This document shows, in pieces, positions 2,522-60,374 of a DNA stretch of 61,046 nt. The DNA comes from an uncultured Candidatus Saccharibacteria bacterium (GTDB lineage Bacteria; Patescibacteriota; Minisyncoccia; UBA6257; GWB1-50-10), in the NCBI GenBank assembly GCA_964495575.1, contig CAZBVS010000001.1, forward strand, positions 1 through 61,046. Direction: 5' to 3'. The notes below the pieces were generated by a model. It saw only the letters and a list, made by a program, of their open reading frames with translations, ran no database searches and was not told the DNA's origin. Position 1 is the first letter of the stretch; the number at the start of each line of letters is the position of its first letter. A program made the translations under genes and the position numbers.

Positions 2522-2548
2522 ACTATTTTCTATTATAAAATATTTTTA

Positions 2549-4664: not shown

Positions 4665-4665
4665 A

Positions 4666-5307
4666 TTATTTTCTTTCTTTTTCTATAAACTGAGGATTAT
4701 ATAAATTGTATAATAACTCTGTTAATTCCTCGTCTTTTAATATTTTAACCCTTAACCCCACCTGTTCTAAACCTGACCGAACCTCATCTACTCTGTAATC
4801 TAATTGTTGTATTTTTTTTGCCTCAGACTCTTCTTTGTCTGTTTCTTCTTTAGTGTTTTTCCCAGTTAGAGAATTTATTATTCCTCCTAACCCCTTCTTT
4901 GTTTTTTCTACTACCTTAATAGGTTTATAAGGTACCACCACAAAGAAATTTTTAGTTATAATAGGGTTTTCTTCTACAAAAGATTCTATAAACTTGGCGT
5001 ATTCTTCTATCTGAACTTTTAATAACTCTTTTTTCTCTATATCTATTCTTTCTCTTATCTTTTCTAAATAAGAGTTTATATTTATTTTTCTAGAGTGAAT
5101 AAATATCTGGACCGGGAAATCCAAACCATTCAAAAAATTTTGAAAAGATCCTAATATTATTTCCTGCTCTTCTTCAGATTTTAAACTAAAGTTTATGCCA
5201 TTTACTATAAGTGCTTTTCTTAAAGCACCATTTTTCATGTAAATAACTCCGTTTTCCACCCTATCTACATCTACAAATTTTTGTGTTGCTTTTGTTTTTT
5301 CCGCCAT
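4666..5307 (-). CDS. T4SS-associated protein resembling the extreme N-terminal domain of Gram-positive VirB4-type ATPases (possible split VirB4)
   Basis: FVDVDRVENGVIYMKNGALRKALIVNGINFSLKSEEEQEIILGSFQNFLNGLDFPVQIFIHSRKI resembles, from memory, the N-terminus of Tn916-Orf16/TcpF-type ATPases. Its stop lies 1 nt before the virB4 start. Confidence 0.45.
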   Translation of the reverse strand: MAEKTKATQKFVDVDRVENGVIYMKNGALRKALIVNGINFSLKSEEEQEIILGSFQNFLNGLDFPVQIFIHSRKININSYLEKIRERIDIEKKELLKVQIEEYAKFIESFVEENPIITKNFFVVVPYKPIKVVEKTKKGLGGIINSLTGKNTKEETDKEESEAKKIQQLDYRVDEVRSGLEQVGLRVKILKDEELTELLYNLYNPQFIEKERK

Positions 5308-5343
5308 GTTTTTATTTTAATGTATACTTCATTTAATTCCTAA

Positions 5344-5850
5344 TTATTCTGAATAATCAACCCTCTTTGCTTTCTCCACTTCTCCTGTTAGATGTCTCAC
5401 CGTTTGGTAACGTTCTTGCTGGTCATTTTTTTCTTTATTTTTCTTTAGAAAAGGAATATTTCCGGTAGTTATATTTCTAACCGCTGATTTTATCTTTCCT
5501 TGCAACCCCATATTTTTTCTAACCGCCTTTATTTTTTCTACCGAAGAAGTGTCCAAGGTTGTAGTTTCAATATCCCTTTTCCAAACGTATTTTTTTGGTT
5601 TTTGCCAGAAATTAAGAGCGTGTAGTATTACTTTTGGTAATGGTTGTCCGTTAATTTTTACAAACGCCAAGCTCACTCCCAAACCTCCCGCAAAAATTAG
5701 TATTAAAAATGAGAAAAGAGGAGGAAGCGTATAAAAAGCAAGCACGCTTAATCCTCCAGCCCCCGCAATATACAAAAACTGAGTCAAAGTTAAAGGACCG
5801 ATTATTTTTGCTTTTTTGTCTATAAATTGTGGTACCTGAAACTGAGCCAT
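5344..5850 (-). CDS. PrgI-family (VirB3-like) T4SS membrane protein
   Basis: MAQFQVPQFIDKKAKIIGPLTLTQFLYIAGAGGLSVLAFY... followed by a second hydrophobic helix, the pattern of PrgI/VirB3 analogues. Located upstream of virB4, as in Gram-positive T4SS loci. Confidence 0.6.
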   Translation of the reverse strand: MAQFQVPQFIDKKAKIIGPLTLTQFLYIAGAGGLSVLAFYTLPPLFSFLILIFAGGLGVSLAFVKINGQPLPKVILHALNFWQKPKKYVWKRDIETTTLDTSSVEKIKAVRKNMGLQGKIKSAVRNITTGNIPFLKKNKEKNDQQERYQTVRHLTGEVEKAKRVDYSE

Positions 5851-5855
5851 ATGAT

Positions 5856-6737
5856 TTAATTTAGATTACTTAAATCAATAGTGTTACCTGAAACACTTGG
5901 GTTATTTTTCTTCTTATCTTTATCAATCTTTTTATTTTGCTTCTCAGGCTTACTTGCCGCTTCTTTTTGTTTTTGTGCTTCACCACTCTTATCAGGCTGC
6001 TTCCTAGGCTTATTTTTTTGATTAGCGATGTTTATAAAGCTTTTATCATTATCAGAAGAAGCAGGAGTTCTATACTCACTATAATGAACCGTTCTTTTCT
6101 GATCCTTTTTAGGTGTTTGAACCTTTGCAGAAGGACCATCTTTTTCTTGCTTTTCAAAGAAGTCTCCAAATGAAAATGAGAAATCTTTTTTCTGTTTTGG
6201 TCTCTCTTCCTCTCTTTTTTCTTCTTGGTGAATTACAAAAGGGGTCTCTTTATTTTTTTCTTCAGTTTTTTGACTTTCTTCTTTTTGAAATTCTGATTTA
6301 ATAAACTCTTTATCACCTTTTTGTTCCGGCTTTTCTTTGTGTGATATTTCGATGTTTCCAATTTTCTGATCCGTCTTGTGTTTTATGTTGGCTATGTTTG
6401 TATCCGTTTCTGCTACTGGTGAGTAAATCTCATTAAGTTCATCTAAGAACTGAGAGAATATTTTTTTATCTACCTTATCTGAAATTTGTTCAGCAACTTT
6501 TTTATCTATCTCTGTCTCCTTTAAGATTTTTTCATCTAGCTCTTCTTTATGTATAAACCCATATAGCACAAAAGAAACAAGCTTAAACAACTTCTCTGTT
6601 TTTATTTCATTAAGGTGGTGTTCTTTTGCTATCTGTAACAGAGTTTTTCCATACGCCGGAGAATACAAAGCCTTCCGAAGTTCCATCGGCATATTGTCCC
6701 ACCTTCTATCTATTTTGGCTTTTGGATAAGTAATCAT
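5856..6737 (-). CDS. hypothetical protein with structured N-terminal domain and K/E/Q-rich disordered tail
   Basis: Long ORF in operon register; the C-terminal two thirds is low-complexity charged sequence (KQKKDFSF..., KPRKQPDKSGEAQKQKEAASKPEKQNKK). Confidence 0.55.
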   Translation of the reverse strand: MITYPKAKIDRRWDNMPMELRKALYSPAYGKTLLQIAKEHHLNEIKTEKLFKLVSFVLYGFIHKEELDEKILKETEIDKKVAEQISDKVDKKIFSQFLDELNEIYSPVAETDTNIANIKHKTDQKIGNIEISHKEKPEQKGDKEFIKSEFQKEESQKTEEKNKETPFVIHQEEKREEERPKQKKDFSFSFGDFFEKQEKDGPSAKVQTPKKDQKRTVHYSEYRTPASSDNDKSFINIANQKNKPRKQPDKSGEAQKQKEAASKPEKQNKKIDKDKKKNNPSVSGNTIDLSNLN

Positions 6738-6768
6738 ATTGTTTTATTTATGAATGACGAGCCTTTCT

Positions 6769-8748
6769 CTATTTATCTTTAGTTTCCCCTTCTTTGTCTT
6801 TACCACTTTTTTCTTCAGAAGATCCCGACTTGTCCTCTCCAGAGGACCCCTCTTCCGATCCTTCTTTATAATATGTTCCTCCACCACCTTCAAAGTTAGC
6901 GATTACATTCTTAAACCTCTTTAGCCCTTTTTCATCTCCCAATGTTGTAAGAGCTGCTTTGTATTCTGCTTCGAAATTATCTCTTCCTTTGGAGTCTAGC
7001 TTAGGCTCAATGCTGGACACAAGACCTTTATTTGTTTTAGCTATAGCTTTAGCAATCATTTGTGACGCTTCTTCTAATTTATCCTTTCCAATGCCTAACT
7101 TTTCCTTGCCGCTGAATATATCTTTGAGGGGTATGTCCTTCAAATCTTTTTTAAGTAATTTTCCGTAGAATTTTTCAGCCTCTTCATAAAATGTATCCGT
7201 ATCATCATTTTTTAACGCCTCCATCATTTCTAGTGTCATACCCAACTGTTTCTCAATCTTTTTGAAGGCTCCCTTTTCTCCATAATTCTCAAACAATCTT
7301 TTGTTATCCTCGGTAAGATGTTCTTTAGCATTAATTTTATTGATCTTTCCGTCTTTAGACAGACTTTTTAGAAGCTCTTTCTTCTCGGGTCCGGAAGCTC
7401 CTGGTAATTTGGCCAACTTTCTTTCTGTGCTCCAGCCTTTCATTTTCTTTTGGTACTCACTTGCCACCCCTTTCTTACCCTTGTCTTCAAGTGCGGTTAG
7501 CTGTCCCGCCACCCATGAAGCCGCTTTTCTACTAAACTTACCCGTTCGATTACCAGCCATCTCCCTTGCTTTACCAGCCAATGATTTATCACTTTCCTTA
7601 CCTTTCCTCCTTACTGGATAAGTCACAGCCCTCATAGCGTTTCTCTTAGCAAAGCTTGATGCCTTGCCCTTTGCCCAGCCCTTTGCCCAGCCTCCTGCAG
7701 ATTTAGCGATTCCAATTGCTCCTTTTGCTCCGTTGATTCCCATCTTGTCCGCGGCGTATAATCCGGCGAACATTAAAGCTGCAAGGACAATCATTTGAAT
7801 TCCCTGGTTTAATATTGCTCCTAAAGCAGCGTTTGAACTTGCAAAGTTAGCAGCGGCTGAATTAGCAAAATCTGCGTTTTTTATATTCTCTGCTCCCACT
7901 AACGTGAGGTAAATAAAGAATGACACTGCCGGAGCAAAGAAGGTCCATTTCAAAAAACTTTGCCACCAGTTTTGAAACTGGCTTTGTAGTTGGGGGATTA
8001 CCCATGCCAGCCATACTATCGGAGCAAGAACAAGCAAGAAAGTTAATACAACATAGCGAGCTAACAGCATAAAGGCTAAAGCCCCGAACACAATGGTTGT
8101 TAATCCGGTGAGTACTATGGTAAATATTATGTTTGTGACTCCTATAAGCAACGCGGAGCCCACCCCAATGCTCCCTTGGTTGTCTGGATCTACAGCAGGT
8201 ACTTCATTATCACTTGTTCCAATAACAAGTTTTTGAGGATTAAAAGCTCCCGCTATTGCTCCTGAAATTTGATACCCTCCGTTGCCTGGGTTTAAGAAGA
8301 ATTTAGTTAACGTATTTGAGAAACCGATTATGGGTGTAGCAATAGCCAAGCTAAAGTTAACAATTAAAGCCGCCGCAATAAGTTTAGGTAATAGTTTCTT
8401 CACCCCATACTGTTTGAACTGTACTATTGTGGCAAAACCTATAATGATTATTGCCAACACAAAACCCAAGTTTGCTAAATCACGAGTTATTTTCCAACCT
8501 TCTGAAATTAAGGTATTTGAATCATTTAAATTGTTTATATTATATTGCAGCATTACATCTGCTAAACTAGCCATCCAGTTTAGCAATGTACCTATAAAGA
8601 ACCTAAATATCTGAGCTATTACGTTTGTTATGGTAGAAGCAATATTTGCCGCCAAACCTGCGTTAGCAACTAACGGCAATGAAAACACTAATAAAGATAT
8701 TCCTAGTATCTTTAAAAGTTTTTTTCTTTTTTTAATAAAACTTTTCAT
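6769..8748 (-). CDS. TrbL/VirB6-like polytopic T4SS channel protein with long hydrophilic C-terminal domain
   Basis: Signal-like N-terminus, at least 6 long hydrophobic segments across residues about 20-340, then a roughly 300-aa K/E-rich soluble tail. Size, topology and position match VirB6/TrbL components. Confidence 0.6.
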   Translation of the reverse strand: MKSFIKKRKKLLKILGISLLVFSLPLVANAGLAANIASTITNVIAQIFRFFIGTLLNWMASLADVMLQYNINNLNDSNTLISEGWKITRDLANLGFVLAIIIIGFATIVQFKQYGVKKLLPKLIAAALIVNFSLAIATPIIGFSNTLTKFFLNPGNGGYQISGAIAGAFNPQKLVIGTSDNEVPAVDPDNQGSIGVGSALLIGVTNIIFTIVLTGLTTIVFGALAFMLLARYVVLTFLLVLAPIVWLAWVIPQLQSQFQNWWQSFLKWTFFAPAVSFFIYLTLVGAENIKNADFANSAAANFASSNAALGAILNQGIQMIVLAALMFAGLYAADKMGINGAKGAIGIAKSAGGWAKGWAKGKASSFAKRNAMRAVTYPVRRKGKESDKSLAGKAREMAGNRTGKFSRKAASWVAGQLTALEDKGKKGVASEYQKKMKGWSTERKLAKLPGASGPEKKELLKSLSKDGKINKINAKEHLTEDNKRLFENYGEKGAFKKIEKQLGMTLEMMEALKNDDTDTFYEEAEKFYGKLLKKDLKDIPLKDIFSGKEKLGIGKDKLEEASQMIAKAIAKTNKGLVSSIEPKLDSKGRDNFEAEYKAALTTLGDEKGLKRFKNVIANFEGGGGTYYKEGSEEGSSGEDKSGSSEEKSGKDKEGETKDK

Positions 8749-8757
8749 TATTTGTTC

Positions 8758-10518
8758 CTAATCATTTAATAATCCGTTACAACTTGATAATTTTAAATCT
8801 ATAGTCTCTTCCCTTTCTTCTACCCGAGCTTTTATTGTTTCAACATCCGAAGATATATTTCTTACCTCTTCTATCAAATCATAGAAATCACTTTGATATT
8901 TTTGTAATCTAAATGACTCTCCACTTTCTATAGTGGAGGTAACGTGTGAAACGTCGTAATCGTACCTGTTATCTATTTCTACTAATACTGAATTCCAGTC
9001 ATTCATATATAAATCGATAGAGTTAAATTTATTCCTAATCAAGGCTTTATCACTCTCTATGTTACTAAGGTATAACTCGGCCTTTTCTAATTTACTTTCC
9101 GCAGCAATTATTTCTTCTGAAGAAGCTTCCCCATCATTTTCTAAGCTCTCTAAAACCTCCTCTCTACATGATATCAATCCTTCTGTGGTAGTGGTCATAG
9201 AAAACGCTTCTTCGTTAACCTCTTTTGCTTCATGGAGGGTAGTGCTGGCAGAGGTTAGACTGATGCTGTCATTGCTATAATTTGCATGTTTAGTTTCTAG
9301 CTCACTCCGTAATTCTTGAAGATTTTCTACTTTTTGGTCTACAAAATCTTCTGTAGAGGTTGTGTTTATTAAATCCCTGTTTCTTTCAAAGTCATCAATT
9401 GCCCCCTCTAATTTTTCTGTTTGTTCCTCCTTAGCCATCTTATCTTTCAAGGCACCCTTTACTTCATCTGCAGCATTAGCAGCAGATTTTGCTGCATAAC
9501 AAGCAGCTCTTTCTCCTCCTTCTAGCTCACTACACTTTGCACTTTTATCCCCACTGGTTAGGTAGGTTAATCCATTTACTGTCTCTCTTGTTAACCTATT
9601 TATCCCTGCATTTATGATGGCGGCAATATAAGAACCGACCCCTTCTGTATTAAGTAAGGCATCTATATCAGATCCGAGAGCTTTAGTTGTAATTGATTTA
9701 GAAATTTGACTTGGGGTTACAATCTCAGTATTAGAACATTTCCAGTCTGATCCCAGTGGTGAATCCTCTCTTCCGTTCCATGAGTAACCATCAGGTGTTT
9801 CTGTGTAATTAAACTCTTCATGACCGGAAGTCACAGAAAAACCTTGATTATAAGTTTCATTTCCTGATGCTACCGCTCCATCATTTTTAGCAACCCATTC
9901 CGTACAACGTTTTGAGTTTAAGAAGCCTCCCGAATTTGAAACCTCTAGCTTACTTACGGTCTCTTTCTCTTCCTGTTTATTCATTACCTCTTGCTGAGTT
10001 AAAAATTTTATTCCCTGAGGGTTGTTTTGAGGTTTTAAGCTTTCTTGATAAGCTATCCACCCACCGTCTTGAAAGTTATCACCGAAAGCTTCTATATTTT
10101 CTACAATATCATCAAGAGTACACTGGACTCTCTCTCTAAAAACAGGCTGTTGCATATCAAACTTTAATTGAAATCTTAGGTCTTCATAACACAACTCTGA
10201 AGCTCCTAACTCTATAGCGGTATCTCCCACTGCTGCCTGAAACGAGTCTTCTAAAACACCGTCGAAGTTTTTAATAAATTTTGGGTCTCCATTGCCTTGA
10301 ATATACTCTATAATTCTATTGGTAGCCATGCTTAATAAGCGGTGTTTTAATGTCTGTAAAATAGTTTGAAGTACATTATCTACAATCCACGTACCTACTT
10401 CAGCTAGATCAATATTGAGATCAACTATCCCTAAAACAGCGTGAGCTCTTAGTGGATAAACCATTCCACTAAAAAGTATTAAAACTAAAAATAAAATTGA
10501 TATATTGGTTTTAAACAT
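8758..10518 (-). CDS. secreted hypothetical protein with Cys-containing N-domain and acidic coiled-coil C-terminal half
   Basis: Signal peptide MFKTNISILFLVLILFSGMVYPLRAHA. The C-terminal half is heptad-like and E/S/L-rich. Overlaps the upstream gene by 1 nt. Confidence 0.6.
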   Translation of the reverse strand: MFKTNISILFLVLILFSGMVYPLRAHAVLGIVDLNIDLAEVGTWIVDNVLQTILQTLKHRLLSMATNRIIEYIQGNGDPKFIKNFDGVLEDSFQAAVGDTAIELGASELCYEDLRFQLKFDMQQPVFRERVQCTLDDIVENIEAFGDNFQDGGWIAYQESLKPQNNPQGIKFLTQQEVMNKQEEKETVSKLEVSNSGGFLNSKRCTEWVAKNDGAVASGNETYNQGFSVTSGHEEFNYTETPDGYSWNGREDSPLGSDWKCSNTEIVTPSQISKSITTKALGSDIDALLNTEGVGSYIAAIINAGINRLTRETVNGLTYLTSGDKSAKCSELEGGERAACYAAKSAANAADEVKGALKDKMAKEEQTEKLEGAIDDFERNRDLINTTSTEDFVDQKVENLQELRSELETKHANYSNDSISLTSASTTLHEAKEVNEEAFSMTTTTEGLISCREEVLESLENDGEASSEEIIAAESKLEKAELYLSNIESDKALIRNKFNSIDLYMNDWNSVLVEIDNRYDYDVSHVTSTIESGESFRLQKYQSDFYDLIEEVRNISSDVETIKARVEEREETIDLKLSSCNGLLND

Positions 10519-11321
10519 TAAGTCTGTACATTATTTTTTAATTCCTCATATCTTTCGTTGATAATAGAGTGTAATTTACCACTTTCCTGAAGTATTATAG
10601 GTAAGTCTTGTATAGCTAGGTAAGCTTTCAAGGGATCATCCTCTCTATTTTTCATTGTTTTGTACATAGTCAATTTTTTTTGCCAAAGATTTAACATTTG
10701 AAGATGGTAGCTTGCCCAGTTTTCTGGAACCTCTATTTTTAATAAATCATCTATATGCTGGGGGACTGTATTAATAAATTTATCTAGTATTTCAGAATTA
10801 TTATCTTCTAGAAAACCTCTTAAAGCAGAAACTGAATTTTCGTTTTTTAATTCTTCAAAATTATTCCATAGAGTTTGATCTAGTTCTTCTATATATTCTA
10901 TTTCTCTTTCATCTGAAGTATTATCAACAACTTTTATATCCTTTTCTTTAAACTGAGGGTAATCAACCGTCTTATCTATATTTTCCAACCCTTCGATAGC
11001 GTTTTCTTGAGACTCAATTCCTCCACCCTCATCAACACTTTCTAATAATTTTATTGCATAAGAATCTACAAACCCCTTTGTTAAATTATCATTATCTTCA
11101 TCCCCTTCTTCGTTCTGGTCGTCTGTGTTTTTTTCAGGTAACCTTAAAAAGGAGCCATCATTTCCCTGCTTATAGCTGAGACTGGCATTTTGATCCTCCG
11201 GGTTAAAATTTTTATCCGGATCACCACTTTTTTTACTCTGATTATCTGATAATAAACCAACACTAATTACCACACCCAATAATAAAATTATTAGACCAAG
11301 TGTTTTTCTTGTGTTTAACAT
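10518..11321 (-). CDS. membrane-anchored hypothetical protein; first gene of the T4SS-like operon
   Basis: N-terminal anchor LGLIILLLGVVISVGLL followed by an acidic soluble domain. Preceded by an AT-rich divergent intergenic region. Confidence 0.55.
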   Translation of the reverse strand: MLNTRKTLGLIILLLGVVISVGLLSDNQSKKSGDPDKNFNPEDQNASLSYKQGNDGSFLRLPEKNTDDQNEEGDEDNDNLTKGFVDSYAIKLLESVDEGGGIESQENAIEGLENIDKTVDYPQFKEKDIKVVDNTSDEREIEYIEELDQTLWNNFEELKNENSVSALRGFLEDNNSEILDKFINTVPQHIDDLLKIEVPENWASYHLQMLNLWQKKLTMYKTMKNREDDPLKAYLAIQDLPIILQESGKLHSIINERYEELKNNVQT

Positions 11322-12806: not shown

Positions 12807-12879
12807 CTCCCCATAGTTTAACGGGATAAAACAGAGGATTCCTAATCCTCCGATCTGGGTTCAAGTCCTGGTGGGGAGA
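12807..12879 (+). tRNA. tRNA-Arg(CCT)
   Basis: Hand-folded cloverleaf of 73 nt: acceptor ctcccca/tggggag, D stem gttt/aaac, anticodon stem gagga/tcctc with loop ttCCTaa, T loop ttcaagt. Confidence 0.85.
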
Positions 12880-12887
12880 CAAAAAAG

Positions 12888-12970
12888 GGAGGGGTCGGAT
12901 AACGGCTATTCCACCACACTCGAAATGTGGCGCCCTTACGGGCTTGTGGGTTCAAATCCCACCCCCTCCG
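12888..12970 (+). tRNA. tRNA-Ser(CGA), type II with long variable arm
   Basis: Acceptor ggagggg/cccctcc, anticodon stem ccaca/tgtgg with loop ctCGAaa, variable arm cgcccttacgggc, T arm gtggg-ttcaaat-cccac. Confidence 0.85.
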
Positions 12971-12993
12971 CAAACTTTGGTATAATAAAAGTA

Positions 12994-14000: not shown

Positions 14001-16445
14001 TTAAACAACAAAATTAATAAGTTTATTTTCTACAAAAACCACCCTTTTTATATCTTTGCCTCCAACATATTTTGATACTTTTCTTAAGTTTAAGGCTAAC
14101 TCTTTAGCCTTTTCTTTTTTAATTCCCTTTTCTGCCTCTAGTGTACCTCTTACTTTTCCATTAACCTGAACAACAAGATTAAACTTTTCTTCTTTTGCAA
14201 TATCAGAATCAAATTCAGGCCAACTGCTTTTATGAATTGAAGAGCTATTACCCAGCCTATTCCACAGTTCTTCTGTTACATGAGGAGCAAACGGAGCCAG
14301 CATTTTTATAAATATCTCTGATGTTTCCCGTGAAACATCAGTGTCTTCTATCTTGTTTAATAACTTCATCAAAGCACTGATTGCAGTATTATACTTCAAA
14401 CTTTCTATATCCTCTGTTACTTTCTTGATTGTTTGGTGAAGAATCTTTTTAGTTTCTTCACTATCCTTTCCATCTTTATGGTCATCAAACTTTTTCCATA
14501 CTCTGTCCAAAAACCTTGTAATTCCTTTTACTCCAGAATCTCTAAAGTCTCCTCCGTCCTCAAAAGGAGCTAAGAACATTAAATATGTTCTTAAAACATC
14601 AGCTCCATAGTTATTGATATAATCATCGGGGTTTACAACATTTCCCTTAGACTTACTCATCTTCGATCCTTCTTTTATTAATAATCCATGAGCCCTGAAC
14701 TTTGTGAAAGGTTCATCAAAATCAATATACCCCCAATCATTAAATGTCTTCGTCACAAAACGAGTGTATAAAAGGTGTAATACTGCGTGCTCTGCCCCCC
14801 CAATATACATATCCACCGGGAGCCATTTTTTAATCCTCTCTTTATCTAAAGCCTCCTCTTTATTATCCAAACCAATGTATCTGAAATAATACCAAGCTGA
14901 ATCTAAAAAGTTATCCGACACATCAGTTTCTCTTCTTGCTTCCTTCCCACACTTTGGACAGGCTGTTTTGTAAAAATCCTCATGTTGTTCTAAAGGAGCT
15001 TTTGAGGTTCCTGTAGGTTTAAAATCTTCTATGTAAGGAAGTTTCACCGGAAGCTCTTCTTCAGGTACCGCAAACCATCCTGGGTTTGCTTTTTCTCCTT
15101 TTGTTAGCTTGCCCTCAAACTCACCCTCCTCAATTTTTTTCTTACAAGACTCACAGAACACAAGAGGAATAGGTGGCCCCCAGTATCTTTGTCGTGAAAT
15201 GAGCCAGTCTCTTAATCTATAGTTTGTTTCCATTCTTCCCGCAACTTTTTTAGTAATCTTCTTTCTTGCTTCCTCCGATGGAACACCATTCATCTCCCCG
15301 GAGTTTATTAAAACTCCTTCTCCTTCGTATAATTCTTCTCCTTCCTCTTCTTTAGGTTTAATAACCTCAACCACAGGAATATCATGTTCTTTAGCAAACT
15401 CATAGTCACGTTCATCATGAGCAGGCACAGCCATAATAGCCCCTGTCCCGTATGATGAAAGAACATAGTCTGCTATATATATTGGTATTTCTTTATCGTT
15501 AACCGGATTAACAGCTTTTACTCCTTTAATTAAAACCCCCGTCTTTCCTTTCTCTTCTGCCACCCGTTCCTGCTCTGTTTTTCTTTTTGCTTCTTCTACA
15601 TACCTCTCAATATCTGAAACGTTTTCCGCCTTGTTCTTTAACTTTTTCACCAAATCATGTTCAGGAGCTAAGACCATATATGTTGCCCCATACAAAGTGT
15701 CAGGCCGGGTTGTAAACACCTCTATCTTTTCATCAAAATCTTTAATATTAAACTCAATACTTGCCCCATAGCTTCTTCCTATCCAGTTTTCTTGAGCGAT
15801 CTTTACTTTCTCTGACCAATCAATGTCTTCCAAGCTGTCTAATAATTCATCGGCATAATCTGTTATTTTGAAAAACCATTGAGAAAGTTTTTTTCTCTCA
15901 ATTTTTGAGTCACACCTCTCACATTCTCCTGAGATAACTTGTTCATCGGCCAACACGGTCTTACAGCTTGGACACCAGTTTACAGGTGACTCCTTCTTAT
16001 ATGCCAAGCCATGATCAAACATCTCTTTGAAAACCCACTGGGTCCACCTGTAATATTCTGGATCAAACGTTTCTAATCTTTCGTCCCAGGAAAATCCGTT
16101 TCCAATCATCTTTAACTGTTCGTAGAAATGTTTTTCTGATTTCTCTATCTGATCTTTCGGGTGGGTTCCAACCTTCATTGCATAATTTTCTGAATGAATT
16201 CCAAACCCATCAAGACCGATAGGTTCAAAGACATCCTTTCCTCTCATTCTTTGATATCTTCCATATATATCAGAACCCGTAAAAGCATACATATTCCCCA
16301 CATGAAGTCCTTCTGCAGAAGGGTAAGGGAACATCATTAAGTTATAGAATGGTTCATCAGAATTATCTAAATCTGGTTCATATATTCCATCTTTATACCA
16401 TCTCTCCTGCCATTTATTTTCAATTTCTTTAAAGTTGTATTCCAT
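14001..16445 (-). CDS. leuS: leucine--tRNA ligase
   Basis: HVGN (HIGH) and KMSKSKGN motifs, CP1 editing-domain length, characteristic N-terminus IENKWQERW. Confidence 0.95.
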   Translation of the reverse strand: MEYNFKEIENKWQERWYKDGIYEPDLDNSDEPFYNLMMFPYPSAEGLHVGNMYAFTGSDIYGRYQRMRGKDVFEPIGLDGFGIHSENYAMKVGTHPKDQIEKSEKHFYEQLKMIGNGFSWDERLETFDPEYYRWTQWVFKEMFDHGLAYKKESPVNWCPSCKTVLADEQVISGECERCDSKIERKKLSQWFFKITDYADELLDSLEDIDWSEKVKIAQENWIGRSYGASIEFNIKDFDEKIEVFTTRPDTLYGATYMVLAPEHDLVKKLKNKAENVSDIERYVEEAKRKTEQERVAEEKGKTGVLIKGVKAVNPVNDKEIPIYIADYVLSSYGTGAIMAVPAHDERDYEFAKEHDIPVVEVIKPKEEEGEELYEGEGVLINSGEMNGVPSEEARKKITKKVAGRMETNYRLRDWLISRQRYWGPPIPLVFCESCKKKIEEGEFEGKLTKGEKANPGWFAVPEEELPVKLPYIEDFKPTGTSKAPLEQHEDFYKTACPKCGKEARRETDVSDNFLDSAWYYFRYIGLDNKEEALDKERIKKWLPVDMYIGGAEHAVLHLLYTRFVTKTFNDWGYIDFDEPFTKFRAHGLLIKEGSKMSKSKGNVVNPDDYINNYGADVLRTYLMFLAPFEDGGDFRDSGVKGITRFLDRVWKKFDDHKDGKDSEETKKILHQTIKKVTEDIESLKYNTAISALMKLLNKIEDTDVSRETSEIFIKMLAPFAPHVTEELWNRLGNSSSIHKSSWPEFDSDIAKEEKFNLVVQVNGKVRGTLEAEKGIKKEKAKELALNLRKVSKYVGGKDIKRVVFVENKLINFVV

Positions 16446-28597: not shown

Positions 28598-29428
28598 TTA
28601 ACTTTTTAACCTTTCTTTGTATGCTTTAGTTACAGATATATCACTATGACCAAGTATCTCTTTAGCTTTTCCTAGATCTGTTCTTTTAAATAAGGAAGCA
28701 GCAAAGGAGTCCCTTAACGTCTGAGGGGTTATATTTGATATTCCAGCTTTCCTACCAAATCTATTAAGCAGCCTTTGAACCGAACGAGGACTTATTCTCC
28801 CTAGCACTCTTCCTTTTTTAGTTAAAGAAACAAACAAAGCACTTTCTTGATCATCTCTCTGTTTTAAGTAATCTTTTATTTTCTTCACCGCTAATTTTGA
28901 TAAATGAATTTTTCTCTCTTTATTGTTTTTGTCTTTTATAACAAGTATTCCCGAATCTAAATCAATTTTCTTATCTAATCTACATAACTCAGATACCTTA
29001 ATTCTAGTAGATATCAGAGTTTCAAAAATTGCTCTGTTTCTTTTTTCCCTTAATCCTTGATTTCTTAAATCTCTTAGCTTTTTTATTTCTTCCTTGCTTA
29101 ATACCTCCAGTGTCTCTTTTTGATGTTTAAACAATCGTACTTCTTCAAGGTTTAAAACCTTATCCTTTTTATTTTTAATAAACTTTAAAAAACTTCTTAA
29201 GCCTATTAAATAGTAGTTCTGGGTTGTTTTTTTAATTTTTCTTCCTTTTAGCACATTTTTGTATCTTTTAATCTTTCTTAGACTAATATCTTCCAATCTT
29301 TTTACTTTCATAGAGCTTAAGAAATTATTAACGTACCGTTTATAGTTTTTAATTGTTGTTTTATCTAACCCCTGGGTTTTTAAGTAACGTAAGTACTCTT
29401 TTTTAAGATTTTTTATATTTTCCATCAA
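28598..29428 (-). CDS. tyrosine site-specific recombinase (XerC/XerD-like integrase family)
   Basis: N-terminal SAM-like domain, catalytic region RIKVSELCRL, TPQTLRDSFA, LGHSDISVTKAY. The first conserved His reads Gln. Confidence 0.8.
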   Translation of the reverse strand: MMENIKNLKKEYLRYLKTQGLDKTTIKNYKRYVNNFLSSMKVKRLEDISLRKIKRYKNVLKGRKIKKTTQNYYLIGLRSFLKFIKNKKDKVLNLEEVRLFKHQKETLEVLSKEEIKKLRDLRNQGLREKRNRAIFETLISTRIKVSELCRLDKKIDLDSGILVIKDKNNKERKIHLSKLAVKKIKDYLKQRDDQESALFVSLTKKGRVLGRISPRSVQRLLNRFGRKAGISNITPQTLRDSFAASLFKRTDLGKAKEILGHSDISVTKAYKERLKS

Positions 29429-29511: not shown

Positions 29512-30555
29512 ATGGATATCGAAGATATATACTCCCTGACCAGGGACATGTTAAAAAAAGCCAATTTTTGGCTGAGTTTGCTTATTTTATCAATCTTAGT
29601 GGTAAACGGGTTTCTTGTAAGCTCAATTAATGACAGCGACCCTTATAACAGTCGTTGGAGTTTTGGAGGACCGGTAAAAACAAGTTTAGATACCGCTACC
29701 TCTCTTGATTTTCAAACAACTACATTTGAAAGCTCAGCATCACAAAATGAAGAAGGTGGTGCTTCTTTTGTATATTTAGAAGACGGTTCAGCCGTGGGAG
29801 CTTCTCATACATACTCAAACGTTATCCCTACTCGACAAGGTCTTATGAAATACAAGGTGGGTAAAGGAGACACCTTGTCTGAGATAGCGGCTCAGTTTGG
29901 GGTTACCTTAGACACAATAAAATGGGCTAACCTAGATGTAGGATCCATGATCTCTCCTGGTGATGAACTAACGATTCTTCCTGTTTCTGGGATTCTTTAT
30001 GAAGTACAGCCCGAAGACACTCTAGAAAGTGTAGCTGCTAAATACAGAATAAATCCCGAACTTATCAAAAAATACAACCCCGAATACCAAAAACTTTTTG
30101 AGTCTCCAAGGCAGATGGTGATTCTTCCATACGCAAAACCACTTAATAAGTGGTCTTATGTTAACCAATATCAAGAAAATCTTCCTAATCTTGATAACTA
30201 CTTTACTCTTCCTGCTCGTGGATGGAACTGGGGTGAACTTCATTATTACAACGCTATTGATATTGCTGCTGACTGTGGTAAATCTGTCTATGCCGCCGCA
30301 GAAGGTCTTGTGATAGAAGAATCTGATAATAATCGTTGGAATGAAGGGTATGGAAACTACCTCTTTATAGAACACCCTAACGGTACCAAGACAAAATACG
30401 CCCACACCTTAGAAAACTTAGTTTCCGAAGGAGAATATGTACTTCAAGGAGAGGAAATAGCTTTGATAGGTAACACAGGTAATACAGACGGACCAACCGG
30501 TTGCCATCTTCACTTTGAGGTATACGGCGCCCGAAACCCATTTGCTGTGAAATAA
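29512..30555 (+). CDS. LysM-domain M23-family metallopeptidase (peptidoglycan hydrolase)
   Basis: N-terminal anchor FWLSLLILSILVVNGFLV, two LysM repeats (YKVGKGDTLSEIAAQFGV, YEVQPEDTLESVAAKYRI), M23 motifs NAIDIAA and HLHFEV. Start set at ATG 29512, downstream of the tataat at 29494-29499. Confidence 0.85.
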   Translation: MDIEDIYSLTRDMLKKANFWLSLLILSILVVNGFLVSSINDSDPYNSRWSFGGPVKTSLDTATSLDFQTTTFESSASQNEEGGASFVYLEDGSAVGASHTYSNVIPTRQGLMKYKVGKGDTLSEIAAQFGVTLDTIKWANLDVGSMISPGDELTILPVSGILYEVQPEDTLESVAAKYRINPELIKKYNPEYQKLFESPRQMVILPYAKPLNKWSYVNQYQENLPNLDNYFTLPARGWNWGELHYYNAIDIAADCGKSVYAAAEGLVIEESDNNRWNEGYGNYLFIEHPNGTKTKYAHTLENLVSEGEYVLQGEEIALIGNTGNTDGPTGCHLHFEVYGARNPFAVK

Positions 30556-30583
30556 TAAATCTGATTTAAAATAAAAAAATAAA

Positions 30584-30610
30584 AACCAGCTGAGACAGCT
30601 GGTTTATTTT
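30584..30610 (+). terminator. intrinsic terminator after the M23 peptidase gene
   Basis: aaccagctg-aga-cagctggtt followed by tatttt. Confidence 0.7.
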
Positions 30611-30617
30611 ATATAAT

Positions 30618-30753
30618 TGGTGGAGCTGGCAGGACTTTAACCTGCACCCCTTGCCTGAAAAAGCAAGTATTCTTTCAATCAGGGTTCCTTTACGTTATAC
30701 AAACTTCTACGTTTGTATAACCGGGAACGGCTGACGACTTGAACTACAGCTCC
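30618..30753 (-). ncRNA. 136-nt tRNA-like RNA with encoded CCA, non-canonical (not assignable to any tRNA or to tmRNA)
   Basis: The minus strand reads GGAGCUG...GCAGG-UUAAAGU-CCUGC-CAGCUCC-A-CCA. It has a 7-bp acceptor closure, a T-arm-like hairpin and a terminal ACCA. Two internal arms are present: GUUCC/GGAAC capped by a perfect 10-bp hairpin UUAUACAAAC/GUUUGUAUAA, and CUUGC/GCAAG. No standard D arm or 7-nt anticodon loop can be drawn. Confidence 0.45.
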
Positions 30754-30794
30754 TTATTTTTAATGTACACCTAATTTTAAAGGTACAGTTTTCC

Positions 30795-30880
30795 AAGATA
30801 AAAACCCGCAAAATACGGGTTTCTTTATACATCCTTCAAAAAAGAAAAAGCGGCCGATGGGTTTTGTGAAGAATGTACTA
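30795..30880 (-). ncRNA. candidate small RNA of about 85 nt (promoter-to-terminator unit)
   Basis: Starts about 7 nt after the TAGAAT -10 box and ends at hairpin aaacccg-7nt-cgggttt (30802-30822) followed by ttttat on the minus strand. Confidence 0.35.
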
Positions 30881-30886
30881 GTTACT

Positions 30887-30914
30887 ATTCTATTGATCTA
30901 AAATAATTTGTCAA
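30887..30914 (-). promoter_or_regulatory. strong promoter-like element (TTGACA-16-TAGAAT)
   Basis: Read on the minus strand, between the dksA-like terminator and the candidate sRNA. Confidence 0.5.
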
Positions 30915-30931
30915 ATAATTTATCAACAAAT

Positions 30932-30960
30932 AAAAAAATAACCGGCTAGAAAGCCGGTTA
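30932..30960 (-). terminator. intrinsic terminator after the DksA/TraR-like gene
   Basis: taaccggc-6nt-gccggtta followed on the minus strand by a run of 7 T. Confidence 0.7.
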
Positions 30961-30968
30961 TTTAACTT

Positions 30969-33246: not shown

Positions 33247-35421
33247 ATGGAAAAACGTTTTAATCACAACGAAGAAGAAGAGAAAATATACAAGGCCTGG
33301 GAAGAAGCCGGATATTTTTCACCTGAAGGATGTATAAAAGCAGACGTTACCGATAAAGAGGCAGAACCTTTCTCTATGGTTCTCCCTCCTCCTAACGTAA
33401 CCGGGGATCTTCACATGGGTCATGCTGCTATGCTTGTCATCGAAGACATCATGACTAGATATCACAGAATGAATGGCTACCGCACTCTTTGGCTACCCGG
33501 CACAGACCATGCCGCAATTGCTACACAATCAAAAGTAGAATCAAAAATATTTGAAGAACAGAACAAAACCCGTCATGATCTTGGCCGGGATGAGTTTTTA
33601 GAAAAAGTTAATAAGTTTGCCAAGGAAAGCCATGACACAATAATTAACCAGGTAAGAGCCATGGGAGCATCCTTAGACTGGGACAGAGAAGCCTTTACCT
33701 TAGACAAACCAAGAGAGAAGGCAGTAAGGACTGCCTTCAAGAGAATGTATGACGACGGTCTCATATACAGAGGAGACAGAATTGTAAACTGGTGTCCACG
33801 CTGTGGCTCTACCCTTTCTGATGACGAGGTAGAATACAAAGAACGCAATACCAAACTCTATGAATTTAAATACGATAAAAGTTTTCCGTTAACTATTGCC
33901 ACTACTCGTCCTGAAACAAAGTTAGGCGACACAGCCGTGGCTGTTCATCCTGATGATAAACGGTATAAAAAGTACGTAGGTAAAGAATATGATGTAGACT
34001 TCGCTGGTCAAGACCTTCATATAAAGGTAGTGGCTGATCGTAATGTTGATCCTGAATTCGGAACAGGAGCTGTTGGAATTACCCCAGCCCACAGTCATGT
34101 TGACTGGGAAATAGCCGAAAAAAACGATATCCCTAAAATCCAGATTATCGGCGAGGACGGTAAGATGACAGATAAGGCCGGAGACTTCGCTGGCCAGACC
34201 GTTAAGGAGGCTAGAAAAGGAGTTGTAAAATGGCTCAAGGAAAATGATTTAATAACGAAAGAAGAAGATGCTCCTCAAAACTTAAGTATCTGCTATCGAT
34301 GTGATACGCCCGTAGAACCACTTCCAAAGCTTCAGTGGTTCATTGATGTGAATAAAGAGTTTAAAATGAAGCATTCTAAGATAGAAGGAGTAAACAAAGG
34401 AGACAAAACAAGCTTAAAGAAGCTCATGATTACTGTCGTAGAAAATTCCCAGATTGACATCATTCCAGAAAGATTTAAAAAAGTATATTATCATTGGATT
34501 GAAAACTTGAGAGACTGGTGTATATCAAGACAAATCTGGTACGGTCATCGTATTCCTGTTTGGTACAAAGATGACGAAACATATGTCGGTCTTGAAAAAC
34601 CAAAAGAGGAAGGTTGGAAACAGGACCCGGACACTCTAGATACCTGGTTTTCATCAGGCCTGTGGACATTTTCAACCTTAGGTTGGCCTGAAAAAACGGA
34701 AGATCTAAAAACTTACCACCCTACCTCAGTACTAGAAACAGGGTATGATATTCTTTTCTTCTGGGTAGCAAGAATGATTCTTATGAGTACCTATCTTTTA
34801 GGAGAAATACCGTTTGAAGATGTATATCTTCATGGATTAGTTCGTGACGAACAAGGCAGGAAGATGAGTAAGTCCTTAGGCAACGGTATTGATCCTTTAG
34901 AAATGATTGAAAAATATGGAGCAGATGCCACAAGACTCTCATTAATCATAGGAGTTGGTCCAGGAAGTGATATCAATCTTTCTGAAGACAAAGTAAAGGC
35001 ATACCGAAACTTCAGTACTAAAATTTGGAATGTTGCCCGATTCCTTAATATGTCTAAGCCAGAAAATTATAACCAGGAAGAAGCCAAACAGTTTTTAACT
35101 AAAGATGATAAAAAGGTAATTGAAGAAATAAATAAATTCAAAGAAGAGATTACCAAACATTATGAGAAGTATGAGTTTAATCTTGCTGGTGAAAAAACAT
35201 ATGATTATCTCTGGAACGAGTTGGCTAACAAACATCTTGAAAACAATAAAGACCGATTGAAAGGAGATGATCAAGAAAAAGCCAAAGCCGCTTATTATCT
35301 CTTAGAAAAGGTATTGTTTGAGTGCCTTAAAATGCTTCATCCATTTATGCCTTTTGTTACTGAGGCAGTGTATCAAAAGTTAGAGTTGGGAGACAAGATG
35401 TTAATGGTTGAAAGTTGGTAA
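33247..35421 (+). CDS. valS: valine--tRNA ligase (compact form)
   Basis: PPPNVTGDLHMGHA (HIGH) and KMSKSLGN, with the CP1 editing domain. At 724 aa it has only a short C-terminal extension. Confidence 0.9.
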   Translation: MEKRFNHNEEEEKIYKAWEEAGYFSPEGCIKADVTDKEAEPFSMVLPPPNVTGDLHMGHAAMLVIEDIMTRYHRMNGYRTLWLPGTDHAAIATQSKVESKIFEEQNKTRHDLGRDEFLEKVNKFAKESHDTIINQVRAMGASLDWDREAFTLDKPREKAVRTAFKRMYDDGLIYRGDRIVNWCPRCGSTLSDDEVEYKERNTKLYEFKYDKSFPLTIATTRPETKLGDTAVAVHPDDKRYKKYVGKEYDVDFAGQDLHIKVVADRNVDPEFGTGAVGITPAHSHVDWEIAEKNDIPKIQIIGEDGKMTDKAGDFAGQTVKEARKGVVKWLKENDLITKEEDAPQNLSICYRCDTPVEPLPKLQWFIDVNKEFKMKHSKIEGVNKGDKTSLKKLMITVVENSQIDIIPERFKKVYYHWIENLRDWCISRQIWYGHRIPVWYKDDETYVGLEKPKEEGWKQDPDTLDTWFSSGLWTFSTLGWPEKTEDLKTYHPTSVLETGYDILFFWVARMILMSTYLLGEIPFEDVYLHGLVRDEQGRKMSKSLGNGIDPLEMIEKYGADATRLSLIIGVGPGSDINLSEDKVKAYRNFSTKIWNVARFLNMSKPENYNQEEAKQFLTKDDKKVIEEINKFKEEITKHYEKYEFNLAGEKTYDYLWNELANKHLENNKDRLKGDDQEKAKAAYYLLEKVLFECLKMLHPFMPFVTEAVYQKLELGDKMLMVESW

Positions 35422-47561: not shown

Positions 47562-47646
47562 GCTCTTGTGGTGGAATTGGCAGACACGCAGCGTTCAGAT
47601 CGCTGTCCGCTTAAAGCGGGTGGAGGTTCAAATCCTTTCAAGAGCA
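47562..47646 (+). tRNA. tRNA-Leu(CAG), type II
   Basis: Acceptor gctcttg/caagagc, anticodon stem cagcg/cgctg with loop ttCAGat, variable arm ccgcttaaagcggg, T loop ttcaaat; 85 nt. Confidence 0.85.
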
Positions 47647-47696
47647 CAACTAAATTTAGTCGAAATTAATTTAAAACATTTTTAAATAAAAATAAA

Positions 47697-56946: not shown

Positions 56947-57378
56947 ATGAATAATGTATTAAATATTTTAATAAGCGCTTTTGTTCTTTTATTAGTTGGC
57001 TTTTTTGCTTTTTCTCCGCTAGCGTTTGCTGCTCAGAAAGGTGCCCCCGATAGCGGCTCTATAATCTGGGAGGGGGTAACCTGTAATCAGCAAGGAGAAG
57101 ACCCTTGTGATTTTTGTGACATGATTAAGGTAGTCTCTAATATTGTTAATTTTCTAACCCGGTTAGCATATATAGTGGCCGCCGCTGTAATTGTAGCCGG
57201 GGGAGTGATGATAATGGTAAGTGGGGGTAATGAAAAAAGATTCTCTAAAGGTAAGAGTTTAATTACCAACGCTGTTATAGGTATTGTTATTACCTTAACC
57301 GCTTGGATTATTGTAAATACCCTTTTCCACATCATAACCGGTGATGAACAGTTTATTTGGTCCGAAATAGTGTGTTAG
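56947..57378 (+). CDS. VirB2/TrbC-like T4SS pilin paralogue with Cys-containing N-terminal segment
   Basis: Signal peptide ...PLAFAA, Cys segment CNQQGEDPCDFCDM, then helix-basic loop-helix AAAVIVAGGVMIMVSGGNEKRFSKGKSLITNAVIGIVITLTAWIIV. The protein ends in Cys. Confidence 0.65.
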   Translation: MNNVLNILISAFVLLLVGFFAFSPLAFAAQKGAPDSGSIIWEGVTCNQQGEDPCDFCDMIKVVSNIVNFLTRLAYIVAAAVIVAGGVMIMVSGGNEKRFSKGKSLITNAVIGIVITLTAWIIVNTLFHIITGDEQFIWSEIVC

Positions 57379-57387
57379 AATAAACAT

Positions 57388-57759
57388 ATGAAGAAATTAA
57401 CCTTATTTTTAATAACCTTCTTAGCCTTTACCTTTATCCTTGGAGTGCCTCATGTCCTAGCACAACAAGAAGGCTCCCCTACGGTAGGGTTAACTAACCC
57501 TCTTGAGGAATCAGGGGCTAACACGATAGGGGATGTTTTAACCAGAATTATTGATGGTCTTCAGGTTATCGCTATCCCAATAGCCGGTATTATGGTGTTA
57601 GTAGGTGGTTTTCAGATCCTTTTTGCTGCTGGAGACCCCGAGAAATTTAAGAAAGGTAAAAAAACAATCCTATATACAGTAATAGGTTATGCTATAATAT
57701 TAGTAGCTAACGGAATGGATAAATTAATTAAGGATATTTTGACACATTCCGTAGAATAA
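57388..57759 (+). CDS. VirB2/TrbC-like T4SS pilin paralogue
   Basis: Signal peptide ...PHVLAQ, then AIPIAGIMVLVGGFQILFAAGDPEKFKKGKKTILYTVIGYAIILVANG. Confidence 0.65.
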   Translation: MKKLTLFLITFLAFTFILGVPHVLAQQEGSPTVGLTNPLEESGANTIGDVLTRIIDGLQVIAIPIAGIMVLVGGFQILFAAGDPEKFKKGKKTILYTVIGYAIILVANGMDKLIKDILTHSVE

Positions 57760-57822
57760 TTAAAAGTATTTTAATAAAAGGTCGTTTGAAAATATAGTCG
57801 AATTAACAAATTAAAATTAACA

Positions 57823-59961: not shown

Positions 59962-60043
59962 GCCGGAGTGGTGGAACTGGGATACACGCATGATTTAGGA
60001 TCATGTGCTTTACAGCTTGTGGGTTCAAATCCCACCTCCGGCA
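59962..60043 (+). tRNA. tRNA-Leu(TAG), type II
   Basis: Acceptor gccggag/ctccggc, anticodon stem catga/tcatg with loop ttTAGga, variable arm gctttacagc, T arm gtggg-ttcaaat-cccac. Confidence 0.85.
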
Positions 60044-60092
60044 CAAATTGTTTTTTGAAAATATGAAAGTTACTTGTATACTTGTATTGGAT

Positions 60093-60164: not shown

Positions 60165-60172
60165 CACTTATT

Positions 60173-60245: not shown

Positions 60246-60252
60246 CAAATTT

Positions 60253-60335: not shown

Positions 60336-60345
60336 CAAATAAAAA

Positions 60346-60370: not shown

Positions 60371-60374
60371 ATTG

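Follow-up and report, generated by a model that had tools for sequence, protein, structure and literature searches.

The window analysed here, a 61,046-nt stretch of contig CAZBVS010000001.1 (GenBank assembly GCA_964495575.1), carries on its minus strand a gene for a 136-nt RNA shaped like a transfer RNA (tRNA; 30753..30618, full sequence GGAGCUGUAGUUCAAGUCGUCAGCCGUUCCCGGUUAUACAAACGUAGAAGUUUGUAUAACGUAAAGGAACCCUGAUUGAAAGAAUACUUGCUUUUUCAGGCAAGGGGUGCAGGUUAAAGUCCUGCCAGCUCCACCA). It is a conserved, structured RNA gene with its own promoter and terminator and with tRNA topology. We consider it probable that the gene specifies a lineage-specific, tRNA-derived, non-decoding tRNA mimic that is matured by tRNA enzymes and is carried by a small clade of Candidatus Paceibacterota, which are ultra-small bacteria. 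A 7-bp stem and a tetraloop close what would be its anticodon loop, so that codon reading is impossible; the architecture of the RNA is uncatalogued, matching no catalogued RNA family, and belongs with the non-decoding tRNA mimics. A sequence-only reading of the same DNA had described a tRNA-like RNA that fits neither tRNA nor transfer-messenger RNA (tmRNA) rules, and this was borne out by ARAGORN, by Rfam and by the anatomy of the molecule. The closest database relatives of the neighbouring proteins were from Candidatus Paceibacterota (Parcubacteria, Candidate Phyla Radiation, CPR).

The minimum-free-energy (MFE) fold of the RNA (−52.4 kcal/mol; z = −5.6 against dinucleotide shuffles, with 0 of 200 shuffles as stable) is a four-way junction with cloverleaf topology. 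The transcribed strand is indicated by the orientation of the promoter and terminator and by the many G·U pairs, which would become C·A mismatches on the other strand. The RNA begins with GGAGCUG and ends in GCAGG-UUAAAGU-CCUGC-CAGCUCC-A-CCA, as the sequence-only reading had stated and as can be read directly in the minus strand. Its ends form a 7-bp acceptor stem, GGAGCUG/CAGCUCC (RNA positions 1–7/126–132; 30747..30753 with 30628..30622), followed by A73 (30621) and an encoded CCA (30620..30618). U8 and A9 lie between the acceptor stem and the D stem, A26 between the D stem and the arm at the anticodon position, and a 4-nt variable loop, GGGU, precedes the T arm, GCAGG-UUAAAGU-CCUGC (30629..30645), with a T54/A58-compatible loop. 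The T loop has A instead of C at position 56, a deviation already seen in the earlier reading. Among the core positions of a tRNA, U8, A14, A21 before the 3′ strand of the D stem and an A15/U48-type pair were present, and G18/G19 and C56 were absent.

The D arm (30669..30744) has a 4-bp stem, GUUC/GAAU (RNA positions 10–13/82–85; 30744..30741 with 30672..30669), that encloses 68 nt. The sequence-only reading had held that no D arm could be drawn; this had to be given up, since the stem covaries and a covariance model of the RNA aligns real tRNAs from end to end. The enclosed segment amounts essentially to a single long arm, an irregular hairpin of about 26 bp, which takes the place of the D loop. 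From its base it consists of an internal loop (AAGUC/UGAAA), a helix (GUCAG/CUGAU), a CC/C internal loop, the helix GUUCC/GGAAC that had been recognised before, an asymmetric loop and an apical hairpin of 11 bp, rather than the perfect 10 bp first described. The base of the arm, with the strands GUCAGCCGUUCC/GGAACCCUGAUUG, is conserved (GUCAG/CUGAU, GUUCC/GGAAC, the CC/C loop and an invariant CCCUGAUUG), and the apical hairpin is variable. Neither a kink-turn nor a bulge-helix-bulge motif fitted the arm on inspection by eye.

The arm at the anticodon position (30650..30667) spans 18 nt and consists of a 7-bp stem, CUUGCUU/AGGCAAG, with a UUUC tetraloop. The CUUGC/GCAAG hairpin of the sequence-only reading is thus present, whereas its 8-nt U-rich loop is not: two further base pairs close it to UUUC. 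Since the arm has 18 rather than 17 nt in both lineages compared below, its loop can measure only 4, 6 or 8 nt, and a 7-nt anticodon loop, correctly reported as missing, cannot be formed.

Standard annotation tools passed over this RNA. ARAGORN called eight ordinary tRNAs over the window and no tRNA or tmRNA at the 136-nt RNA, nor did it make either call for the orthologue in the related locus L005. At the gathering score, Rfam returned only tRNAs elsewhere in the window and none at the RNA. A permissive scan (30500–30900, E ≤ 10) gave one relevant match, to the tRNA family RF00005 (28.5 bits against a cut-off of 29), which covered only the 3′ 68 nt and did so via a badly paired pseudo-acceptor stem; the L005 RNA had no RF00005 match at E ≤ 5. 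The standard, permuted and mitochondrial tmRNA families gave no match up to E = 10 in the window or E = 5 in L005, YrlA (RF02553) matched neither RNA in the permissive scans, and intron families were likewise not returned for the region in either locus. No open reading frame (ORF) of ≥50 aa overlaps 30600–30960. No description of this RNA architecture was found in Rfam 15 or in the searchable literature, and the literature searches likewise turned up no tRNA introns or tmRNA peculiarities in CPR bacteria.

Compared with the tRNA family itself, the RNA shares the 7-bp acceptor stem, U8-A9, the 4-bp D stem, A14/A21, a short variable loop permitting an A15-U48 pair, the 5-bp T stem with its 7-nt T54/A58-type loop and the A73-CCA end. 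It differs in that its D loop is a 62-nt arm, not 7–11 nt with G18 G19, in that it has A56 and not C56, and in that its anticodon arm is an 18-nt closed hairpin instead of a 5-bp stem with a 7-nt loop (U33, R37).

Homologues were traced through the dksA-like protein encoded upstream into public assemblies, and three sequence variants of the RNA were found. The window variant is identical in L001 (dksA-like and tsaD products both 100% identical). The second variant occurs in L002, L003, L004 and L014, from two Paceibacterota metagenome-assembled genomes (dksA-like 78%, tsaD 89% identity), and the third in L005, L006 and L007, from JGI (Joint Genome Institute) metagenomes (dksA-like 65%, tsaD 69%). 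The RNA gene lies directly downstream of the dksA-like gene in every lineage carrying it, and the surrounding gene order is conserved in L002 and L005.

Sequence identity between the RNAs of L005 and the window is only 59%, but when folded alone the L005 RNA adopted the same architecture (z = −3.6). Its acceptor stem has 8 bp, GGGGAGUG/CACUCCCC, of a sequence entirely unlike that of the window, so that the acceptor/T stack is 8 + 4 bp in L005 vs. 7 + 5 bp in the window. The D stem is GUUU/AAAC, the base of the long arm keeps GUUCY and CCCUGAUUG, both invariant between the two RNAs, and the tip of the arm is unrelated to that of the window. A 7-bp stem with a tetraloop, AAUUAUC-UUUA-GAUAAUU, stands at the anticodon position, the variable region measures 2–4 nt across the two RNAs, and the T arm reads GCCG(C)-UUAAAUA-(C)CGGU. 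Pair 3:70 is G:C in L005 and A:U in the window and L002; the A:U pair, and its contrast with the G3:U70 of the window's genuine tRNA-Ala, had both been noted in the sequence-only reading.

A covariance model, R1, built from the window and L002 sequences, found the L005 RNA with 57 bits (E = 2e-15). It also aligned genuine tRNAs from end to end, with 22–40 bits and the 62-nt arm skipped, which identifies the RNA as a full tRNA-type cloverleaf with an insertion. In the model-based alignment of the three variants, 96% of the cells were paired. Covariation in homologous loci, a check that the sequence-only reading had named, was evident: 13 of the 44 pairs were changed on both sides, vs. 4.7 ± 1.8 in column shuffles, and controls in which the partners were shifted by 1–3 columns contained 0–1 double changes. 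Each of the six helices had at least one double change, with one and four in arm helices 3 and 4, respectively. All seven acceptor pairs were standard in all sequences and three of them were changed on both sides in L005, where the D stem showed C13-G22 replaced by U-A and G10·U25 by G-C. The stem at the anticodon position kept seven of seven pairs in L005, with three double changes, one single-sided change (U·G to C-G) and an unchanged loop-closing U-A. Homologous folds with compensatory changes were thus found in relatives.

Identity between the window and L002 amounts to 97.1% in the RNA, 100% in the trailer with its terminator and 91.8% in the leader, against 62–64% at third codon positions in the dksA-like and tsaD genes. 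Three of the four substitutions in the RNA are stem transitions that keep pairing via G·U, and the fourth lies in an internal loop. These comparisons show that the RNA is under strong purifying selection. They also bear on the idea of a decaying tRNA pseudogene with a palindromic element inserted in its D loop, which we regard as highly improbable. Such a relic would account for the narrow phylogenetic distribution and for a tRNA-like frame whose arm is tipped by a near-perfect palindrome, the 11-bp hairpin; it would not account for 97% identity against about 63% at neutral-like codon positions, for substitutions that keep the pairing in every stem they touch, for 13 compensatory pairs spread over all helices, the inserted arm included, or for a conserved promoter, leader and terminator.

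The end-to-end alignment of R1 with real tRNAs, best with tRNA-Glu (40 bits), could also be explained by a decoding tRNA derived from tRNA-Glu(UUC) with an intervening sequence in its D loop, which after removal of the arm would measure about 74 nt and have an 8-nt anticodon loop. The anticodon would then be of a quadruplet or suppressor type, UUUC in the window and UUUA in L005. With five stem pairs drawn, the loops UUUUUCAG and UCUUUAGA resemble the tRNA-Glu loop CUUUCAA, and the L005 RNA adjoins two tRNA-Glu genes, one of which has a 15–18-nt insertion in its anticodon loop. However, both lineages retain the two additional loop-closing pairs, one of them with a single-sided change from U·G to C-G, the putative anticodon differs between orthologues, and L005 would have C33. 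The base of the arm is more conserved than its tip, which is the opposite of what is expected of an intron; with 62 nt, the arm is smaller than a group I intron can be, intron families were absent from the Rfam matches for the region, and no bulge-helix-bulge motif is seen in the arm by eye. G18/G19 and C56 are absent, and ARAGORN, which handles anticodon-loop introns, made no call. Neither ARAGORN nor Rfam assigned the RNA as an intron-containing tRNA, and we judge this explanation improbable. Group I intron-containing bacterial tRNAs also differ in that their insertion lies in the anticodon loop, whereas that of the 136-nt RNA, of 62 nt, lies in the D loop and matched no intron family.

The 3′ end of the RNA invited comparison with tmRNA. 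Its last 13 nt were claimed to be identical to the 3′ end of Escherichia coli tmRNA, and this was confirmed: the tmRNA-type end GCCAGCUCCACCA was matched to a copy on an E. coli chromosome and to a phage annotation of a "tmRNA pseudogene/attP". The chromosomal copy (L267 501–534; NZ_CP062908.1 3626879–3626912; GCGGGTTCAACTCCCGCCAGCTCCACCA) is an unannotated tmRNA 3′-end copy, flanked by a hypothetical gene and by one for a type II restriction endonuclease; it probably marks the distal att site of an island that had integrated at ssrA. A phage blastn search with the RNA gave only a weak 37-nt match, to the tmRNA pseudogene/attP site.

With the tRNA-like domain of tmRNA, the RNA shares the acceptor/T-arm module, the CCA end, the lack of an anticodon and a long helix leaving the core. 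Relative to E. coli tmRNA, the only change in its acceptor stem is G3→A3, and tag-less tmRNAs occur in jakobid mitochondria. The RNA could accordingly be proposed as a minimal or degenerate tmRNA relative reduced, as in those mitochondria, to the tRNA-like domain. This was one of three candidates offered by the sequence-only reading, next to a tRNA mimic and an integration-site relic; only the tRNA mimic held up. G3:U70 is found in no lineage, and the absence of a tag ORF, as previously claimed, was confirmed: the frames present are confined to the arm and bear no relation to each other (AVPGYTNVEVCIT and a stop codon in the window vs. GVLD and a stop in L005), and ARAGORN reported no tag peptide. 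The RNA has a real D stem and a hairpin at the anticodon position, completing a four-way junction, and its long helix, instead of standing in for the anticodon arm, emerges from the D loop. No tmRNA family matched at E ≤ 10, and the ARAGORN tmRNA search was negative. Because the acceptor stem of L005 (GGGGAGUG/CACUCCCC) is unrelated, the 13-nt identity to E. coli tmRNA is a coincidence, and descent from tmRNA appears even less probable than a decaying pseudogene.

Integration of mobile elements into tRNA and tmRNA genes offers another source for such a 3′ end, namely a duplicated end left behind as an integration-site relic. A tyrosine-recombinase gene (28598–29428) lies 1.2 kb away, and the 3′ end of the RNA resembles tmRNA att sites. 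Both acceptor strands, however, are present and covary, the RNA has its own promoter and terminator and is under strong purifying selection, and L005 has the RNA without an adjacent recombinase. Moreover, the recombinase gene is part of a housekeeping synteny (rpsO, xerC-like, M23) that is also found in relatives without the RNA. Of all the explanations weighed, we give this one the least credence. The 276-aa product of the window's xerC-like gene has no intein; in a related lineage (L262 2742–4928, also L263–L266), the xerC-like recombinase next to rpsO has 728 aa, with an intein and a LAGLIDADG endonuclease domain.

The gene is preceded by a sigma-70-type promoter, TTGACA-16-TAGAAT (30887..30914, minus strand), which agrees with the consensus at 11 of 12 positions. 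L002 has the identical promoter at the same relative position, where L005 has TTGACT-16-TAAAAT. Immediately following the −10 box, all three lineages have a 12-nt block at the 5′ end of the predicted transcript (AGTAACTAGTAC, 30875..30886; consensus AGTAAYTAGWAC, AGUAAYUAGWAC), which among the 267 loci compared had a single chance occurrence outside the RNA locus. Downstream of the RNA lies a strong intrinsic terminator, AAACCAGCUG-UCU-CAGCUGGUUU with a U tract (30583..30605), which is bidirectional and common to the convergent M23 peptidase gene; in L005 it keeps the stem core CCAGC/GCUGG. The dksA/traR-like gene upstream has its own terminator (30963..30936).

Between the promoter and G1 lies a leader of 133 nt. 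Its main element is a hairpin with a 12-bp stem (30827..30878) and a large apical loop that contains the invariant CCAUCGGCC (30860..30852). RNAfold of the full transcripts gave this hairpin within the leader segments of the window (30827–30886), L002 (3419–3480) and L005 (3536–3600), with differing stems and with CCAUCGGCC always in the apical loop. In the Paceibacterota loci compared, CCAUCGGCC occurred at the RNA locus and in one opposite-strand copy inside an ORF of L010; it was also found in four unrelated metagenome or viral loci. A terminator-like hairpin, AAACCCG-UAUUUUG-CGGGUUU followed by a U tract (30800..30822), is seen in the sequence and in the MFE fold between the leader hairpin and the RNA. 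L002 keeps its stem with a changed loop, L005 lacks it, and the consensus terminator scan did not list it. Duplexes predicted between the leader loop and the RNA fell at different sites in the three lineages, so that none is conserved. Displacement of the arm strand GUCRG opposite CUGAU by the leader motif AUCGG is conceivable but found no support. A small leader ORF (ATG at GAAGGATG) was considered and rejected, as it is not conserved in L002 or L005.

The conservation of the leader raises the possibility that the tRNA-like piece is a cis-acting module that processes or stabilises the leader RNA, as mascRNA does at the 3′ end of MALAT1. RNase P cleavage would then create the 3′ end of a leader small RNA of ~70–130 nt in which the CCAUCGGCC loop is the functional part, leaving the tRNA-like piece as a by-product. 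Conservation of the leader matches that of the RNA (promoter, AGUAAYUAGWAC block and invariant 9-nt loop motif in all three lineages), and L005 has no terminator between the two. A pure processing signal would, on the other hand, need neither the invariant arm base (GUUCY…CCCUGAUUG) nor the closed anticodon arm nor 97% identity over 136 nt, and the leader of the window clade, having its own terminator-like hairpin, needs no RNase P for its 3′ end. As the sole function of the RNA, we think such a module unlikely. It is compatible with the tRNA-mimic reading as a plausible second role, and the transcription unit probably encodes two functional RNA elements, a leader RNA and the tRNA-shaped RNA.

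To our knowledge, RNAs that mimic tRNA without decoding form a small group (tmRNA, YrlA, mascRNA and viral tRNA-like structures), and each revealed a distinct use of the tRNA fold. YrlA, mascRNA/menRNA and the species 1 stable RNA of phage T4 are small, stable RNAs comparable with the 136-nt RNA: they do not decode, they reproduce part of the tRNA fold, and tRNA-processing enzymes make them or are engaged by them. The tRNA-like module of YrlA is, however, permuted and placed in a Ro-binding stem without a free CCA end, whereas the ends of the 136-nt RNA form an acceptor stem with a free CCA, and the window has no rsr gene. mascRNA is a eukaryotic by-product of the 3′ processing of a long non-coding RNA. 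The species 1 stable RNA of phage T4 is about 140 nt long, is processed by RNase P and has a CCA end, with no known function. None of YrlA, mascRNA/menRNA and the T4 RNA combines an arm in the D loop with a closed anticodon hairpin. Allo-tRNAs and other irregular tRNA-like genes from metagenomes have a 12-bp acceptor domain split 8/4 or 9/3, and some are non-translating and of unknown role (Mukai et al., 2017; reviewed in PMC7609411). The 136-nt RNA shares with allo-tRNAs a non-canonical cloverleaf, 8/4-like in the L005 copy and 7/5 in the window, but it has neither the long variable arm nor the normal 7-nt anticodon loop of allo-tRNAs and carries a D-loop arm instead. It is thus not a member of the tRNA, tmRNA, YrlA, allo-tRNA or intron-containing tRNA classes.

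The encoded CCA sets the gene apart from its neighbours. The window has eight complete tRNA genes (12807–12880, 12888–12971, 47562–47647, 59962–60448), none with an encoded CCA; all read N73-CA-A/C. Encoding ACCA is therefore a specific feature of the gene for the 136-nt RNA. The L005 copy ends in A-CA-UUUU, with CCA not encoded, like real tRNA genes, and thus shares with the window tRNA genes the A-CA context after the discriminator; this CA may be a lineage-specific 3′-processing signal or a remnant of CCA. The tRNA-Ala(GGC) at 60173 is the gene that carries G3:U70. The window's end truncates a further minus-strand tRNA gene at 60991–61046 (39.2 bits with the Rfam tRNA model, positions 18–71). 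In the L005-type loci, the tRNA-Glu(UUC)-like gene with an insertion of 15–18 nt (L005 3918–4008, L006 2598–2688, L007 3451–3541) stands just downstream of a normal tRNA-Glu gene and of the tRNA-like RNA. UUUCAA is duplicated in its anticodon loop (CUGU GUUUCAAAAAAGAACAUUUCAA ACAG); the ARAGORN call was Glu at two of the loci and '???' (tcca) at the other, and Rfam scored it as a tRNA at 59 bits with an 18-nt insertion. The insertion may be a short bacterial tRNA intervening sequence.

Under the favoured reading of a non-decoding tRNA mimic, a precursor with a structured leader would be transcribed from the sigma-70 promoter and would end at the intrinsic terminator. RNase P would cleave 5′ of G1 and the 3′ trailer would be trimmed to CCA. 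The intact 12-bp acceptor/T stack, A73 and CCA suggest, by analogy with tRNA biology, that the RNA is a substrate of RNase P, of 3′ trimming and of CCA addition. In tRNAs, the D loop normally builds the elbow via G18/G19, and RNase P and the CCA-adding enzyme normally read this D-loop/T-loop elbow. In the window clade, the encoded ACCA (RCCA) would compensate for the remodelled elbow, at least for recognition by RNase P. The product would be a stable tRNA-shaped RNA that engages tRNA-binding proteins via its acceptor end, with the conserved base of the arm as a specific handle for a partner protein or RNA. As modelled, the helix projecting from the elbow together with the closed anticodon loop would argue against ribosomal decoding. 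It is purely speculative that a conserved UGAAA/UGUAA pentad next to the arm acts as a second T loop, which would interdigitate with the UUAAA T loop to form an alternative elbow.

Such an RNA might be an aminoacyl donor off the ribosome or, equally, an uncharged decoy or scaffold. Identity sets that are independent of the anticodon are those of Ala, Ser and Leu. Ala identity is excluded by the lack of G3:U70, and Ser identity by the lack of a long variable arm and by the discriminator A73; of the three, only a LeuRS-type identity (A73 and an A15-U48-type core) appears compatible with the sequence. A LeuRS gene is located at 14001–16445. A bolder proposal, which we put forward tentatively and consider doubtful, is that the RNA represents a new class of CCA-ended, codon-blind bacterial tRNA mimic, which in CPR bacteria is charged by an anticodon-ignoring synthetase and delivers its amino acid off the ribosome, or acts as a regulator together with the CCAUCGGCC leader RNA.

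Several points weigh against the reading as a tRNA mimic matured by tRNA enzymes. Expression and transcript ends of the RNA are predictions from sequence, and its aminoacylation is hypothetical. The covariation sample comprises three variants and effectively two independent lineages, so that all double changes fall on one branch, and the alignment was fitted to the structure model. As L005 does not encode CCA, the argument from the CCA end rests for that lineage on post-transcriptional addition. In the window clade, the terminator-like hairpin at 30822..30800 may mean that transcription of the RNA requires read-through or a putative weak second promoter. Finally, the next relatives (tsaD 64–65%, dksA-like 47–63% identical) keep the gene order and lack the RNA at the syntenic place, and models R1 and R2 (R2 with filters off) found nothing above noise (≤13 bits) in the roughly 60–80 kb covered from those relatives. 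The family may consequently be very narrow or may move around the genome.

In the loci reached by synteny, no lineage below about 65% dksA-like identity had the RNA adjacent to dksA or tsaD. A strict scan for three motifs (GTAGTTYAA…CCCTGATTG…TTAAA) in 185,579 species-representative genomes gave one true match, in the L002 species, and four other matches to sequences unlike the RNA. None of the three matches from the strict viral scan fitted model R1. A looser metagenome scan with a stem-complementarity filter yielded no true homologue among the matches listed (at least 120), and chance matches so dominated the listings of the looser metagenome and viral scans that these carry no information on the distribution of the RNA. 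The known range of the RNA is one small Paceibacterota clade with three lineages; related, diverged RNAs could nevertheless occur in a wider range of genomes.

The 136-nt RNA represents an uncatalogued solution in which the whole cloverleaf core and the CCA are kept, the anticodon loop is shut and a conserved arm emerges from the D loop; its hosts are CPR bacteria, a poorly understood group. Should tRNA enzymes charge or bind the RNA, this would suggest that organisms with minimal genomes use the tRNA fold off the ribosome or for regulation. The RNA escapes standard tRNA, tmRNA and Rfam pipelines, and related RNAs may hide in other metagenome-assembled genomes.

The RNA gene is flanked by a convergent M23/LysM peptidase gene on one side and by the dksA/traR-like gene and then tsaD on the other, within a wider setting of housekeeping genes (pnp, an NYN-domain gene, rpsO, the xerC-like recombinase gene, the M23 peptidase gene, the dksA-like gene, tsaD, the ValRS gene, prsW, hsp20, ppa and nusA). 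Domain scans of 56 ORFs identified no gene for SmpB, a Ro/TROVE protein, a reverse transcriptase or a Fem-type transferase in the window. The ValRS (33247–35421) has 724 aa and matches positions 1–695 of the 860-residue NCBIfam model, its C-terminal region being absent; since the ValRS of relatives measure 694–745 aa, the short form is a feature of the clade and not a truncation artefact. Two type IV secretion-like clusters (799–5850 and 56947–58191) encode type IV secretion system pilins (TrbC/VirB2-like), a TraG/TraC-type ATPase and PrgI, and the first is followed by a run of large ORFs without Pfam match (5856–11321).

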